From Escherichia coli (GTDB lineage Bacteria > Pseudomonadota > Gammaproteobacteria > Enterobacterales > Enterobacteriaceae): a stretch of DNA of 64,000 nucleotides. Of this stretch, positions 17,851-21,615 are shown one piece after another. The notes beneath the pieces are model-generated. The model was not told the DNA's origin. It saw nothing but the letters and a program-made list of their open reading frames with translations, and made no database searches. The stretch lies in the NCBI RefSeq assembly GCF_048403405.1, contig NZ_CP183129.1; one strand, given 5' to 3'. The position numbers were made by a program, and so were the translations under genes. Position 1 is the first letter of the stretch. Every line of letters begins with the position of its first letter.

Positions 17851-18543
17851 CTAGTGATAACCACGCGCGGTCATAAAATCCGTAATCGCTTTTTCTGCAT
17901 CAACCAGCACCTTTTCCAGTGGCTGATTAGCATCGATATCAACCAGTTGTGCACCGCCAAAGGTTAACTGTGGCGTTATGGCTATCTTCCTTTCCAGCGA
18001 TTCTCTTTTGTGGTCAGGCTTACGCGCGCAGGCCACGTCCAGGGAGACATTGAGTTTGATGACCAGATCAGGTTTATGGCTCGCCATCCAGTGAAACGCT
18101 TTACGTTCCTGGCTTGCCAGCCATGAGACAAACCGGCCGCCTTCAACGTTAGGCGGGAACACTGTACCATCGTAAGCGCCAGGAATTTGGTCCTGAGGAT
18201 AACGGTCGGTTAGAACAATTAACCCGCGACGACGACAGGCAAGCATATGACGAAAGCGCAGTAAGCGACGGGCGACAAACGCTGTAATTACCAGCGCCGG
18301 AACTGGTCCTGGCAATTTTTTTGCTGTTTTCACCTGATTTCGTTCAATTGTTTTATGTAAGGATTTTCCCATCAACGGTAATTTTGTCACTGCACGACCG
18401 ACATTTCCGGCTTGTTTTCCTAAATGAACTCTTTCGGCAGCACCATATTTTTCGACAACGGTAATGAGATGTTCACACACCGTTGACTTGCCTGAACCAT
18501 CGCTACCAATAACGGCAATTAATGGAGGTGTTATTGACTGCAT
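17851..18543 (-). CDS. yghT: P-loop NTPase/kinase-like protein YghT
   Basis: 230-aa ORF with Walker [15 protein letters not shown]; paralogous to the two downstream genes. Confidence 0.9.
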
Positions 18544-18716
18544 GAATATATCCTTTAATTTAAATATCCATTAAAAATATTTATTTGGTTAATATGTTTT
18601 TATGAAAGCGTAATTCAGGTCAATGTCACAATTAACCATTGTCACAATAAGGTTGAACGGATATTCTGAGCACGGACCACGTAATATTCAATACATTATT
18701 TGCTGCCGGGTTTTTC

Positions 18717-19430
18717 GTGAATCAACGTAATATGTCAATAATTAATTCCACGCCAGTGCGTGTTATTGCCATTGTAGGATGTGATGGTTCAGGTAAATCG
18801 ACCCTCACGGCAAGCCTGGTAAATGAACTGGCAGCAAGAATGCCAACAGAACACATTTATCTCGGGCAATCGTCCGGGCGAATTGGCGAATGGATTTCAC
18901 AGCTCCCTGTTATTGGCGCACCTTTTGGGCGTTATCTGCGAAGTAAAGCGGCACATGTGCACGAAAAGCCCTCAACACCGCCTGGCAATATTACTGCGCT
19001 GGTTATCTATCTGCTTTCCTGCTGGCGGGCGTACAAGTTTCGCAAAATGTTGTGTAAAAGCCAGCAAGGCTATCTGCTCATCACCGACCGCTACCCGCAG
19101 GTTGAAGTGCCGGGTTTTCGCTTTGATGGCCCGCAATTGGCAAAAACCACGGGCGGTAACGGCTGGATAAAAATGTTAAGGCAGCGCGAGCTGAAGCTGT
19201 ACCAATGGATGGCGTCTTATTTGCCCGTATTGTTGATTCGTCTTGGCATTGATGAACAAACCGCGTTTTCGCGTAAACCTGACCATCAACTGGCGGCGTT
19301 ACAGGAAAAAATCGCCGTTACGCCGCAACTGACATTCAATGGCGCCAGGATCCTTGAACTGGATGGTCGGCAACCAGCCGATGAAATTATGCAAGCGTCA
19401 CTACGCGCAATTCACGCCGCGCTTTCCTGA
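18717..19430 (+). CDS. yghS: P-loop NTPase/kinase-like protein YghS
   Basis: 237-aa ORF, Walker A IAIVGCDGSGKSTL, shared ITDRYPQ and RKPDH motifs with YghT/YghR. Confidence 0.9.
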   Translation: MNQRNMSIINSTPVRVIAIVGCDGSGKSTLTASLVNELAARMPTEHIYLGQSSGRIGEWISQLPVIGAPFGRYLRSKAAHVHEKPSTPPGNITALVIYLLSCWRAYKFRKMLCKSQQGYLLITDRYPQVEVPGFRFDGPQLAKTTGGNGWIKMLRQRELKLYQWMASYLPVLLIRLGIDEQTAFSRKPDHQLAALQEKIAVTPQLTFNGARILELDGRQPADEIMQASLRAIHAALS

Positions 19431-19461
19431 TCACCAAAATGGATAGGGGATGATTTAACGA

Positions 19462-20220
19462 ATGGATGCACTACAAACACAAACTGTTAATAGTACAATC
19501 GCGCCGCAGCCCAACTACATTCCGGGGCTGATTGCGGTGGTCGGGTGTGATGGCACCGGTAAATCCACACTGACCACCGACCTGGTGAAATCGCTGCAAC
19601 AACACTGGCAAACCGAGCGGCGCTATCTGGGGCTGCTCTCGGGCGAAGACGGCGACAAAATCAAACGATTGCCGTTGGTTGGCGTCTGGCTCGAACGGCG
19701 ACTGGCGGCCAAATCCTCGAAAACCCAAAGCATGAAAACCAAATCTCCAGCGCTATGGGCGGCGGTGATTATGTACTGCTTCTCGCTGCGAAGAATGGCG
19801 AATCTACGCAAGGTTCAGCGACTGGCGCAAAGTGGCGTTCTGGTGGTCAGCGATCGCTTCCCGCAGGCTGAAATTTCGGGCTTTTATTATGACGGACCGG
19901 GGATCGGCGTCGAACGTGCGACCGGGAAAATCAGCATGTTTCTGGCGCAGCGCGAACGGCGTTTATACCAACAAATGGCGCAATACCGTCCTGAATTAAT
20001 CATTCGCTTGGGGATTGATATTGATACTGCCATCTCCCGCAAGCCTGACCATGACTATGCCGAGCTGCAGGACAAAATCGGCGTCATGTCGACGATTGGC
20101 TATAACGGCACAAAAATTCTTGAGATTGATTCCAGAGCGCCTTACAGCGAGGTGCTGGAACAGGCACAGAAGGCGGTTTCTCTGGTTGCCATCGTTTCTG
20201 ACCGCCGAAGTTTAACTTAA
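19462..20220 (+). CDS. yghR: P-loop NTPase/kinase-like protein YghR
   Basis: 252-aa ORF, Walker A IAVVGCDGTGKSTL, VSDRFPQ and RKPDH motifs. Confidence 0.9.
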   Translation: MDALQTQTVNSTIAPQPNYIPGLIAVVGCDGTGKSTLTTDLVKSLQQHWQTERRYLGLLSGEDGDKIKRLPLVGVWLERRLAAKSSKTQSMKTKSPALWAAVIMYCFSLRRMANLRKVQRLAQSGVLVVSDRFPQAEISGFYYDGPGIGVERATGKISMFLAQRERRLYQQMAQYRPELIIRLGIDIDTAISRKPDHDYAELQDKIGVMSTIGYNGTKILEIDSRAPYSEVLEQAQKAVSLVAIVSDRRSLT

Positions 20221-20265
20221 GGCTGGCGGGATACTTTTTACTATCAACGATAAGGTCAGGCTGAA

Positions 20266-21615
20266 TTGGCGGGTTTTAACATCAAACATTGGTTTGCAGA
20301 TGGCGCGTTTCGCACCATTATTCGCAATAGCGCCTGGTTAGGCTCCAGTAATGTCGTGAGCGCCTTGCTGGGTTTGTTGGCGCTCTCGTGTGCCGGTAAA
20401 GGGATGACGCCCGCCATGTTTGGCGTACTGGTGATTGTGCAATCGTACGCCAAGTCGATCAGCGATTTTATTAAGTTTCAGACATGGCAGCTGGTGGTTC
20501 AGTACGGAACACCAGCATTAACCAACAATAATCCGCAGCAATTTCGCAATGTCGTCTCTTTTTCCTTCTCGCTGGATATCGTCAGCGGCGCGGTGGCGAT
20601 TGTCGGCGGCATTGCCTTACTCCCTTTTCTTTCCCATTCATTAGGTCTGGATGACCAAAGCTTTTGGCTGGCAGCGCTGTATTGCACGCTCATTCCTTCA
20701 ATGGCTTCCTCCACGCCGACCGGCATTCTGCGTGCGGTAGATCGCTTCGATCTAATTGCTGTACAGCAAGCGACGAAACCTTTTCTGCGCGCAGCGGGGA
20801 GCGTCGTAGCCTGGTATTTTGACTTTGGTTTTGCGGGTTTTGTTATTGCCTGGTACGTGTCGAATCTGGTTGGCGGCACCATGTACTGGTGGTTTGCCGC
20901 GCGCGAATTACGCCGCAGAAATATCCATAACGCCTTCAAATTGAATCTGTTTGAGTCTGCCCGACACATTAAAGGCGCGTGGAGTTTTGTCTGGTCAACC
21001 AACATTGCCCACTCCATCTGGTCGGCACGTAACTCGTGCAGCACAGTGTTGGTGGGGATCGTGTTAGGACCCGCTGCCGCCGGGTTATTTAAAATCGCCA
21101 TGACATTCTTCGACGCCGCCGGAACGCCAGCGGGTTTACTGGGTAAAAGTTTTTACCCAGAGGTGATGCGTTTAGATCCGCGCACCACCAGACCGTGGTT
21201 GTTAGGCGTGAAGTCAGGTTTACTGGCGGGCGGAATCGGTATTCTGGTGGCGCTCGCGGTGTTGATCGTCGGCAAGCCGCTCATTTCGCTGGTGTTTGGC
21301 GTTAAGTATCTCGAAGCGTATGACCTGATTCAGGTGATGCTGGGCGCAATTGTGATCTCGATGCTGGGCTTCCCTCAGGAGTCATTGCTATTGATGGCGG
21401 GAAAACAGCGCGCTTTTCTCGTGGCGCAAACCATCGCCTCAATCGGCTACATCGTATTGCTGTTCATGTTCTGTCATCTGTTTGGCGTGCTGGGGGCTGC
21501 ATTTGCTTACTTCGGTGGGCAATGTCTGGATGTGGTGTTCTCGCTAATTCCGACCTTAAAGGCATTTTTTCAGCGCCATTCCTTGCTTTATAACTCAGCC
21601 GGAGAGAAATCCTGA
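20266..21615 (+). CDS. yghQ: polysaccharide/lipid flippase-like polytopic membrane protein (MOP/Wzx-type), YghQ
   Basis: 449-aa hydrophobic ORF; start is a TTG at 20266 in the ORF track, so the true start is uncertain. Confidence 0.8.
   Translation: MAGFNIKHWFADGAFRTIIRNSAWLGSSNVVSALLGLLALSCAGKGMTPAMFGVLVIVQSYAKSISDFIKFQTWQLVVQYGTPALTNNNPQQFRNVVSFSFSLDIVSGAVAIVGGIALLPFLSHSLGLDDQSFWLAALYCTLIPSMASSTPTGILRAVDRFDLIAVQQATKPFLRAAGSVVAWYFDFGFAGFVIAWYVSNLVGGTMYWWFAARELRRRNIHNAFKLNLFESARHIKGAWSFVWSTNIAHSIWSARNSCSTVLVGIVLGPAAAGLFKIAMTFFDAAGTPAGLLGKSFYPEVMRLDPRTTRPWLLGVKSGLLAGGIGILVALAVLIVGKPLISLVFGVKYLEAYDLIQVMLGAIVISMLGFPQESLLLMAGKQRAFLVAQTIASIGYIVLLFMFCHLFGVLGAAFAYFGGQCLDVVFSLIPTLKAFFQRHSLLYNSAGEKS

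Follow-up and report, generated by a model that had tools for sequence, protein, structure and literature searches.

In Caulobacter, sphingolipid head-group enzymes (CpgA-D) are encoded beside the genes for sphingolipid synthesis (PMC10331486, PMC11324152), LptF2/LptG2 homologs were reported to be necessary for sphingolipid transport (bioRxiv 10.64898/2026.04.12.717747) and CC_1166, a member of YghQ's InterPro family, is a proposed sphingolipid flippase (PMC11324152 S1 Text). Earlier work on the sphingolipid locus of E. coli dealt with the enzymes of the first steps: the spt-operon orthologs of strain BL21 were characterised biochemically and yghO was assigned as the aca ortholog (PMC9386255). 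Archaeal PPK3 pairs two paralogs of thymidylate kinase, whose genes lie with those for a CHAD protein, a SixA-type phosphatase and PPX (PMC12995831), and CHAD domains bind polyphosphate (PMC6537752). As for the E. coli genes yghR, yghS and yghT, a full-text literature search found no paper on their function, which agrees with the original prediction that none has been published even for K-12.

The stretch of E. coli DNA analysed here (64,000 nt, hereafter the window) carries these three kinase-like genes and yghQ next to a gene for a CHAD-like protein, which is a previously unnoticed partner of the kinases. We propose that YghT, YghS, YghR, YghQ and the CHAD-like protein may constitute a module that phosphorylates an envelope lipid on its head group, the lipid being most likely ceramide in the case of E. 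coli, a reading to which we give a probability of about one half. Because the kinases travel with a flippase, the CHAD-like protein and genes for sphingolipid synthesis and export, they are the strongest candidates for making the head group of the sphingolipid predicted for E. coli. Gene context lends good support to one part of the original idea, namely that they share the envelope-lipid pathway of their neighbours; that they are lipid or head-group kinases in it is what we infer.

A kinase, flippase and CHAD-like unit beside sphingolipid genes

The gene yghT (17851-18543, minus strand, 230 aa), which open reading frame, annotation and motifs identify as the T-type paralog of a TMPK-like P-loop kinase family, diverges from yghS across an AT-rich intergenic region (18544-18716) that probably holds the promoters of both transcription units. 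One sigma-70-like match lies there (18639-18667, plus strand), the match count being no higher than in shuffled sequence, and overexpression of SlyA in K-12 raises yghS 3.1-fold (PMC5797941). On the plus strand, yghS (18717-19430, 237 aa, S-type paralog) is probably the first gene of a seven-gene operon that continues with yghR (19462-20220, 252 aa, R-type paralog), yghQ (20266-21615, 449 aa), the CHAD-like gene (21615-22439, 274 aa, annotated 'hypothetical'), whose start overlaps the yghQ stop by one base, and a YtfJ-family gene (22451-23011) whose product has a signal-peptide-like N-terminus and matches NCBIfam TIGR01626 above cut-off (215.7 bits). The last genes, annotated as lptF- and lptG-like permease genes (LptF2/LptG2, 23042-25188), are followed by a strong hairpin (25186-25220), which closes two convergent units. 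The other is the spt-acpR-cerR(epi)-aasR operon (25223-29307, minus strand), annotated for long-chain base and ceramide precursor synthesis, beyond which lies yghO (29679-30821, plus strand), annotated as a predicted N-acyltransferase and the counterpart of aca/cerS. Since the annotation of the E. coli locus includes no cpgA-D, glycosyltransferase, CDP-alcohol transferase or cytidylyltransferase, the kinases are its sole candidate head-group enzymes, standing in the place of Caulobacter cpgA-D.

YghQ, full length in the window, was originally called MOP/Wzx-like, and this holds: it matches Pfam PF01943 (Polysacc_synt, E=1.1e-8) and PF13440 (E=1.2e-7). Its score against the NCBIfam 'MOP flippase family' equivalog is weak (33.7 bits, cut-off 273), so that its sequence assigns this inner-membrane protein and candidate flippase to the MOP (Wzx/MurJ/MATE) superfamily at superfamily level only. 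In other organisms, a Wzx protein is fused to a kinase of the YghTSR family (P0209, P0257; architecture Wzx-(N-domain)-kinase), which would place the kinase at the flippase. The CHAD-like protein is basic, and its fold is CHAD-like: two bundles of four helices each, which carry conserved basic residues, among them invariant Arg, Lys and His. The E. coli protein itself has no match to PF05235 (CHAD), which was found in one of 23 aligned homologs (E=3.4e-3) and, as a precomputed match, in 4 of 120 homologs. With such a partner, the likely chemistry of the kinases shifts towards a poly-anionic phosphate substrate.

That these genes might be distributed independently of the lipid operon is not what comparison across genera revealed, since they are linked to yghQ, the CHAD-like gene, spt and/or LptF/G-like genes. 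The unit, defined as at least two kinase paralogs with a MOP flippase and a CHAD-like protein, was found in Enterobacterales, Xanthomonadales, Beta- and Deltaproteobacteria, Sphingomonadales and Acetobacteraceae. It adjoins spt-acpR-cerR-aasR, LptF/G-like exporters or both, in no fewer than five different arrangements of the genes. Kinases, yghQ and the CHAD-like gene occur together in about 50 loci, which belong to six or more orders. The spt operon lies less than 10 kb from the unit in Enterobacterales, Luteibacter/Dyella, Rhodocyclaceae, Methylotenera and Pseudomonas, Halioglobus has LptA-, LptF- and LptG-like genes in between its kinase genes, and in a myxobacterial MAG a fused LptF-LptG stands beside the kinases. 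Most of the remaining matches come from Sphingomonadales and Acetobacteraceae, for both of which the literature describes spt-carrying or sphingolipid-producing members; the four-gene unit of Acetobacter, which sits among housekeeping genes, counts against a lipid-pathway reading. The YtfJ-family gene stays with the module in Enterobacterales only.

Three ancient paralogs of thymidylate-kinase type

The three motifs that the original prediction had picked out in YghT, YghS and YghR (G[CS]DG[ST]GKST, [TS]DR[YF]PQ and RKPDH) are all present and invariant, and paralogy is far above chance (YghT-YghS, 35% identity, E=3e-52; YghS-YghR, 44%, E=2e-62; YghT-YghR, 34%, E=3e-47). The proposed triplication of a small kinase-like fold is thus real as regards the P-loop paralogs, but it is ancient, not a local event, because the T, S and R orthogroups are shared by several classes. 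T-type members occur in each of the taxon groups sampled, all 61 of them with Walker A and DR[YF], and YghR orthologs across Enterobacterales are 67-98% identical. The three motifs are the signature of a large family without a name, of which 1285 representatives were found at E<=1e-10, and recur throughout its top 149 representatives; every orthogroup retains the P-loop, DR[YF] and R[KR]P motifs in 80-100% of its members, DR[YF] in 100%, and a 45-sequence alignment has G-x-D-G-x-G-K, D-R-x-P and R-x-P as invariant core.

The AF2 model of YghS (pLDDT 91) retrieved only thymidylate kinases (TMPK) as its top 30 Foldseek matches in the PDB (TM 0.45-0.58, E 5e-7 to 7e-6; the best of them at TM 0.5-0.58 and about 17% identity), a few related nucleoside and adenylate kinases appearing at lower ranks of the top 50. 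A profile of the 45 sequences also found TMPK among PDB sequences at E=1.1e-11 (P. falciparum TMPK, 48.1 bits), and GxDGxGKST, DRYP and RKPDH align on the TMPK P-loop, DRY and lid in the alignments to 3hjn and 2wwf. Modelling and profile both point to a fold of TMPK type, not to the LpxK or ceramide-kinase (CpgB/DAGK) types with which comparison had been suggested. The closest solved relatives act on soluble nucleotides, which weighs against a lipid reading. Other identities were rejected: no LpxK was among the NCBIfam matches or the top 50 PDB fold matches, YghS has no Pfam match of the DAG kinase/LCB5 type to which the ceramide kinase CpgB belongs, and PADLOC models of anti-phage defence gave P-loop-level matches only (E>=2e-4).

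The kinases are strongly basic (pI 9.6-9.9, YghT 9.9; family mean 10.2), and the family carries a basic insertion of about 45 residues on the acceptor side, where the segment has a mean net charge of +12.5. Some members have a second P-loop kinase domain in tandem, and 53 of the top 149 representatives have an extra N-terminal domain. Since the N-domain members examined belong to Wzx/Wzy polysaccharide clusters that include glycosyltransferases and sulfotransferases but not spt, the kinase family as a whole is not sphingolipid-specific, which limits the lipid link that the original prediction drew.

What the module may do

YghT, YghS and YghR are predicted to be competent kinases of the TMPK superfamily (P-loop Lys, DRx Asp/Arg and lid Arg are intact), although not on dTMP, and would form with YghQ and the CHAD-like protein a conserved module at the cytoplasmic face. 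This module would add one or more phosphates to the head group of an envelope lipid, the substrate in E. coli being most likely ceramide from the neighbouring spt-acpR-cerR-aasR and yghO, after which YghQ may flip the anionic product and LptF2/LptG2 may extract it towards the outer membrane. The paralogs could work as a hetero-oligomer or in successive steps. The lipid head group as substrate, the order of steps and the direction of transport are all inferred.

It is possible, if unlikely, that the kinases instead phosphorylate a polyprenyl-diphosphate-linked sugar or oligosaccharide, or another glycolipid, exported by the Wzx-type flippase, the unit then serving surface glycans and its sphingolipid neighbourhood in Enterobacterales being secondary. 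Such a role would suit the N-domain members, encoded directly after Polysacc_synt and before GT4 and Wzy with sulfotransferases near, as well as the Wzx-kinase and GT4-kinase fusions known in the family and the GT4 gene in one metagenomic core module. It fares less well with the loci of E. coli, Serratia, Erwinia and Luteibacter, which have no glycosyltransferase, initiating transferase or Wzy, and with the stand-alone subfamily, which is tied to spt and Lpt-like lipid exporters and not to polysaccharide polymerases; the sphingolipid locus of Caulobacter, too, encodes a Polysacc_synt protein.

The strain K-12 touches on the same question. An intact sphingolipid locus is found in about three quarters of complete E. 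coli genomes and is broken in K-12, where spt, the CHAD-like gene and lptF2G2 are missing and yghQ is interrupted by IS5; in about 520 complete E. coli genomes, yghTSR persist although the spt stretch is absent, which counts against the ceramide reading. A set of 50 vancomycin-resistant K-12 mutants included Tn mutants of each of yghQ, yghR, yghS and yghT, and most of the others affected envelope genes such as mla, waa, opg, wecA and tolC (PMC9278758), a hint in favour of the envelope module that we propose. In that study, the ygh phenotype was uncomplemented and the four strain numbers are near-consecutive (PMC9278758), so polar effects or cross-contamination are possible. If real, the phenotype implies a kinase target other than ceramide in K-12, which lends the glycan alternative some support.

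More doubtful still is that the paralogs are a heteromeric polyphosphate kinase, or polyphosphate-dependent kinase, like archaeal PPK3, in which the CHAD-like protein holds the chain and the lipid link is indirect, or polyphosphate is the donor. The gene content described above for PPK3 does resemble the three TMPK-like paralogs and CHAD-like protein of E. coli, and the strongly basic proteins, the tandem kinase domains, the polyphosphate binding of CHAD domains and a histidine phosphatase of the SixA/PhoE superfamily in one metagenomic module all speak for it. Yet the DRx arginine, lost in regulatory PPK3 subunits (PMC12995831), is kept in all paralogs, and the family profile gives STK_15430 (2plr/5h70), a homolog of the PPK3 catalytic subunit, only 25.6 bits (E=8.7e-5), below the score for TMPK. 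The loci examined have no ppx, ppk or pst gene, and a membrane flippase, which soluble polyphosphate metabolism does not need, is an obligatory partner. E. coli, moreover, already has PPK1.

Returning to the ceramide-phosphorylating module that we favour, a bolder version is conceivable, in which the paralogs stack phosphates on ceramide (hydroxyl to phosphate, then to di-, triphosphate or longer), the CHAD-like protein holds the chain, and YghQ flips and LptF2/G2 deliver a lipid-anchored oligo- or polyphosphate to the outer membrane. The phosphate-onto-phosphate chemistry typical of thymidylate kinases is what suggests it, and none of the papers found describes such a lipid class in bacteria; we regard it as a long shot. 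That YghT, YghS and YghR are true dTMP or other nucleotide monophosphate kinases, as their TMPK-type fold, P-loop, DRY and lid motifs and the RefSeq name 'dTMP kinase' of YghT and YghS would have it, is scarcely credible given (i) NCBIfam dTMP-kinase scores (TIGR00041 and NF005923; YghT, 22.6 and 25.4; YghS, 24.6; YghR, 30.9 bits) far below every family cut-off (83.25 and 193), which make that name an over-annotation, (ii) a Pfam search in which YghS had no match at E<=0.001 and reached Thymidylate_kin (PF02223) at E=0.012 over the P-loop only, (iii) a possible loss of thymine stacking, in that an HMM alignment to PfTMPK puts the Phe of 'LLFSANRW', which stacks on thymine, opposite an aliphatic family consensus residue, the following Arg being retained, (iv) the basic acceptor-side insertion, (v) the linkage to membrane and lipid genes and (vi) the separate, essential tmk of E. 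coli.

Significance and comparison with known systems

Probable machinery for making and flipping a sphingolipid head group in E. coli can now be named (three TMPK-derived kinases, a CHAD-like protein and a MOP flippase), four long-standing y-genes (yghT, yghS, yghR and yghQ) gain a candidate role, and the same unit is found in well-known sphingolipid-producing groups. A large kinase family, so far without a name and with more than 1000 sequence clusters, also comes into view, a systematic RefSeq mis-annotation is flagged, and the outer membrane may hold a phosphate-rich lipid that would bear on antibiotic permeability and on interaction with the host.

With thymidylate kinase (PF02223/TIGR00041), YghTSR share the P-loop kinase fold and an alignable P-loop (G-x-D/E-G-x-G-K-S/T-T), DRY and lid Arg, but they differ in their low identity (about 17%), in a longer, very basic acceptor-side segment and in being encoded by two to four paralogs next to genes for membrane lipids. 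The Sulfolobus PPK3 (Saci_2019/Saci_2020; PMC12995831) is alike in that TMPK-derived paralogs are encoded with a CHAD-type protein and basic surfaces lead one to expect a poly-anionic second substrate, whereas YghTSR have no specific sequence affinity to its catalytic subunit and no degenerate regulatory paralog, their locus is without ppx, and they are always found with a MOP flippase and often with sphingolipid and Lpt-like genes. Stand-alone CHAD proteins (PF05235; PMC6537752) are likewise encoded beside phosphotransfer enzymes; in the E. coli protein, with no Pfam CHAD match and few homologs flagged, polyphosphate binding is putative. The Caulobacter CpgA-D locus (PMC10331486, PMC11324152) shares aasR, cerR, acpR, spt, cerS, LptF2/G2 and a Polysacc_synt protein with E. 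coli, again with head-group enzymes, in E. coli candidate ones, beside the sphingolipid genes and an anionic phosphorylated sphingolipid as expected product, but CpgB is of the DAG-kinase/LCB5 type with a GGDG motif, in contrast to the TMPK-type P-loop fold predicted for YghT, YghS and YghR. LpxK (tetraacyldisaccharide 4'-kinase) exemplifies the type of role that we propose for these kinases, being a P-loop enzyme that phosphorylates a lipid on the cytoplasmic side of the inner membrane.

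Thymidylate kinase-like paralogs at the sphingolipid locus

YghT, YghS and YghR appear to be thymidylate kinase (TMPK)-derived enzymes recruited to a membrane-lipid or polyanion pathway. That the three proteins are paralogous, as originally predicted from shared motifs, is borne out by pairwise identities of 35% for YghT-YghS (E=3e-52), 44% for YghS-YghR (E=2e-62) and 34% for YghT-YghR (E=3e-47), and all three motifs are present and invariant across them. A profile built from the trio and run against cluster representatives retrieved 2187 of these at E<=0.001 and 1285 at E<=1e-10, and the three motifs, which recur through the top 149 representatives, are the signature of this larger family. 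Across 45 aligned family sequences, no variation is seen at G, D, G, G and K of the P-loop, at D-R-x-P, or at R-x-P of RKPDH.

None of the three kinases has a Pfam match at E<=0.001, and their top NCBIfam matches are dTMP kinase models scoring 22-31 bits, against cut-offs of 83 and 193. The RefSeq name 'dTMP kinase' is unjustified because no curated family accepts these proteins. YghT and YghS (17851-19430) nevertheless carry it, despite 22-25 bits against a cut-off of 83, in what looks like a systematic over-annotation copied through thousands of genomes. The TMPK relationship itself is seen in the AlphaFold model of YghS (pLDDT 91), whose best matches are thymidylate kinases at ~17% identity and TM 0.5-0.58, and in the 45-sequence family profile, which reaches TMPK sequences at E=1e-11 and pairs G-x-D-G-x-G-K-S-T with the P-loop, DR[YF]P with the DRY motif and RKPDH with the lid. 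The arginine of the TMPK 'SANRW' motif has a conserved arginine opposite it, and the phenylalanine of 'LLFSANRW', which stacks on thymine in TMPK, faces an aliphatic consensus residue. A very basic segment of ~95 residues separates the P-loop helix from the DRY strand; its net charge averages +12.5 over the family. Whole-protein pI is 9.6-9.9 for the E. coli kinases and 10.2 for the family mean. On sequence and model, these proteins look like active phosphotransferases descended from thymidylate kinase, with a different and probably anionic acceptor.

The kinds of lipid kinase with which the trio was initially to be compared do not fit, since LpxK is absent from the NCBIfam hits and from the top 50 fold matches, and CpgB, the ceramide kinase of Caulobacter, belongs to the DAG-kinase/LCB5 type (PMC10331486) and is therefore unrelated to the Ygh kinases, whose fold is that of TMPK. 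Three further identities were rejected: an anti-phage defence system, for which PADLOC returned P-loop noise only; PPK2, as YghS has no Pfam match; and, by inference, the ATPase of the lptF- and lptG-like permeases LptF2/G2, as the Ygh proteins are TMPK-like and not ABC-type and as LptF2/G2 are reported to co-purify with LptB (preprint bioRxiv 10.64898/2026.04.12.717747).

Locus layout and the CHAD-like partner

In the window, which is 100% identical to the chromosome of E. coli MS 69-1 (NZ_CP146675.1), yghT (17851-18543) is an ORF on the minus strand, and divergent from it lies yghS (18717-19430), followed on the same strand by yghR (19462-20220). The next gene, yghQ (20266-21615), is full length, and its product is the MOP/Wzx-like protein that had been predicted, with a Pfam Polysacc_synt match. 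Its stop is overlapped by a 274-aa 'hypothetical' gene on the same strand (21615-22439), which precedes a YtfJ-family gene (22451-23011) and the lptF- and lptG-like genes, which end at 25188; from yghQ to the lptG-like gene, neighbours overlap or are separated by <=45 bases. Convergent to these, the genes for Spt, an acyl carrier protein, an epimerase/reductase and an acyl-AMP ligase occupy 25223-29307, with yghO beyond them. Strong hairpins border the unit (17812-17840 and 25186-25220) and none of comparable strength was found between yghS and lptG2, which suggests that yghS to lptG2 form a seven-gene operon with yghT divergent. In a promoter scan, sigma-70-like sites were no more frequent than in shuffled sequence; the native region is rich in AT and probably silenced. 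Just inside the start of the 274-aa gene, at the yghQ junction, is a short GC-rich hairpin (21632-21652) that can be read on either strand and may be due to chance or be a translational coupling element.

The 274-aa gene, which had been missed in the original prediction, encodes a protein with no Pfam or NCBIfam match and an AlphaFold model of high confidence (pLDDT 95). CHAD domains consist of two four-helix bundles and are polyphosphate-binding modules (PMC6537752); by its predicted fold, and not by any Pfam match, the 274-aa protein appears CHAD-like. The residues conserved in its family are mostly basic or histidine (R88, K92, H105, H193, R196 and H237), and a PDB sequence search with this family gave zero matches.

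Across 5426 complete E. coli genomes, yghTSR is found in 4604, the spt operon (spt-acpR-cerR-aasR) in 4067 and the contiguous stretch from yghT to the reductase gene in 4080. In some 520 genomes yghTSR is present but the contiguous spt stretch is missing, and ~820 have no intact yghTSR stretch, ~680 of these lacking any match. K-12 W3110 (L002, 8267-10461) has an IS5 in place of everything from the 3' end of yghQ through the ligase gene aasR.

Several neighbouring features are worth recording. The YtfJ-family protein, which has a signal-peptide-like N-terminus and accompanies the kinase-flippase-CHAD unit in Enterobacterales only, might work with the exporter from the periplasmic side. Directly next to yghT, in loci of Escherichia, Pseudocitrobacter, Hafnia and Citrobacter, is pitB (16303-17802), which encodes a low-affinity phosphate transporter; this may be coincidence or be tied to phosphate supply. 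Further along, a low-GC block (30-34% GC, ~44000-55000) is region 2 of a group 2 (kps) capsule locus, bordered by kpsF/E/D-like, kdsB and kpsM/T-like genes, and upstream of it (40400-44100) lie a frameshifted IS4 and decayed gspK/gspL.

Conserved linkage, gene fusions and a proposed pathway

A survey of one genome per GTDB species yielded 74 loci, which were searched with the E. coli proteins. A set of two to four kinase paralogs with homologs of YghQ and of the CHAD-like protein recurs in Enterobacterales, Luteibacter, Dyella and Halioglobus, and also in Rhodocyclaceae, Methylotenera, deltaproteobacterial MAGs, Sphingomonadales and Acetobacteraceae. In ~30 loci, spt-acpR-cerR-aasR lies <=10 kb from the kinases, and the gene order varies. 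E. coli and Erwinia sorbitola share the order kinases, yghQ, CHAD-like gene, YtfJ gene, lptFG and convergent spt; the spt operon is at the opposite side of yghT in Serratia liquefaciens, Mangrovibacter and Cedecea, between yghR and an inverted yghQ-CHAD-YtfJ block in Erwinia endophytica and Rosenbergiella, and between yghR and yghQ in Luteibacter and Dyella, while Rhodocyclaceae and Methylotenera have the CHAD-like gene between yghT and yghS. In a Halioglobus MAG (L025, 11606-16163), the four kinase paralogs are interspersed with LptA-, LptF- and LptG-like genes and a PAP2 (LpxE-like) phosphatase gene, and a single fused LptF-LptG gene abuts the kinases in a myxobacterial MAG (L039, 10684-12966). 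In line with the initial lipid-pathway proposal, the kinases are thus not distributed independently of the lipid genes, and a linkage that outlasts so many rearrangements is good evidence that these genes function together. In Acetobacter, the four-gene unit is by itself, surrounded by housekeeping genes. Sphingolipid genes are scattered in Sphingomonadales and Acetobacteraceae (PMC9386255) and our scan covered the loci only, so the association in these two groups rests on taxonomy. In Novosphingobium barchaimii (L059, 7712-9753), the kinase-flippase-CHAD unit is immediately preceded by a divergent two-component system resembling PmrA/PmrB (QseB/QseC).

Average-linkage clustering on p-distances of 173 kinase sequences from these loci separated a T-type group, which occurs in all taxa, from S-type and R-type groups, found as adjacent pairs, and from a fourth, S/R-like group in Sphingomonadales and Acetobacteraceae, which is mostly paired with a T-type gene. 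The catalytic motifs are kept in every group. Of the predicted triplication, paralogy therefore stands, and the event is an old one, its groups being common to distant taxa, with at least two kinds of kinase retained almost everywhere. This retention is more in keeping with a hetero-oligomer or a series of steps than with redundancy.

The kinases most likely phosphorylate the head group of the ceramide made by the adjacent genes. Fold, motifs, charge, linkage and fusions are observed, and from them we infer the lipid substrate, the number of phosphates and the order of action. In this model the kinases would be held near YghQ at the cytoplasmic face and act there on the ceramide head group; the anionic product or an intermediate would be bound by the CHAD-like protein, and YghQ would flip the product for LptF2/G2 to pass on. 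That this product is a lipid-anchored oligo- or polyphosphate seems rather improbable. An independent pointer, which we take as a hint of an envelope role, is a K-12 transposon screen in which yghQ, yghR, yghS and yghT mutants were all among 50 vancomycin-resistant mutants (PMC9278758 Table 1), the others being mostly in envelope genes including mla, waa, opg, wecA and tolC; the ygh mutants were uncomplemented, and their library numbers are near-consecutive (PMC9278758). The screen supports an envelope role, yet as K-12 has neither spt nor the CHAD-like gene, ceramide is perhaps not the sole substrate.

The wider kinase family also serves polysaccharide-type clusters without spt. An N-terminal domain of ~260 residues is present on 53 of the 149 top representatives, giving proteins of ~500 aa (P0163-P0268); its consensus (G-x-T-D-x-D-x-L-V, then E-D-W) resembles, in our own reading, a minimal nucleotidyltransferase, and a PDB sequence search with it gave zero matches. 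The 274-aa protein was considered as a counterpart of this domain and rejected (no BLASTP match, hhalign probability 0.9%). Where context is available (L006, 7223-9482; L084, 10001-12233), these fusions have a Polysacc_synt gene on one side and GT4/Wzy genes on the other, sulfotransferase genes occur in the vicinity, and a further TMPK-like gene always follows directly. Some family members have a Wzx domain in front (P0209, P0257), a GT4 domain in front (P0261) or a second P-loop kinase domain behind (P0254, P0266), and through such fusions the kinase is physically joined to a MOP flippase and a second kinase. A role as kinases acting on polyprenyl-linked glycans would account for the fusion subfamily and for the K-12 phenotype; it is nonetheless unlikely, as it leaves the loci without a glycosyltransferase unexplained.

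Comparison with PPK3 and the Caulobacter pathway

In its parts, the locus bears a striking likeness to PPK3 (published in 2026), a polyphosphate kinase made of two thymidylate kinase paralogs, whose genes lie with those for a CHAD protein, a SixA-type phosphatase and PPX (PMC12995831), since both combine TMPK-type paralogs with a CHAD or CHAD-like protein. The Ygh family nevertheless fails three tests of PPK3 membership: its profile scores ordinary TMPKs above a homolog of the PPK3 catalytic subunit, the DRx arginine is lost in none of the Ygh-type paralogs, and the loci examined showed neither ppx nor another polyphosphate gene. A PPK3-like polyphosphate enzyme is improbable; it would explain the CHAD partner and the charge but not the obligatory flippase. 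An echo of the PPK3 operon is seen in a metagenomic contig near gidAB-parAB (L087, 7040-12661), where GT4, two kinases, a histidine phosphatase (His_Phos_1, SixA/PhoE superfamily), a YghQ-like gene and a CHAD-like gene lie in a row. A true nucleotide kinase, contradicted by both scores and context, can be dismissed as highly improbable.

The ygh genes themselves and the E. coli sphingolipid locus were already known, and we found no paper placing YghT/S/R in that locus, describing their family or noting the CHAD-like gene. A close known counterpart to the proposed ceramide head-group phosphorylation by the Ygh kinases is the Caulobacter sphingolipid locus, with aasR, cerR, acpR, spt, cerS, LptC2/F2/G2, the Polysacc_synt protein CC_1166 (a proposed flippase) and the head-group genes cpgA-D (PMC11324152; bioRxiv 10.64898/2026.04.12.717747). 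The two loci are alike in their non-cpg gene set, whereas that of E. coli has no cpg genes, glycosyltransferase or CDP-alcohol transferase and carries, in place of the cpg genes, three kinases, the CHAD-like protein and YtfJ. By position and exclusion, the kinases are candidate head-group enzymes, and the kinase/CHAD-like/flippase set gives experiments a direct way to approach the head group of the E. coli sphingolipid.
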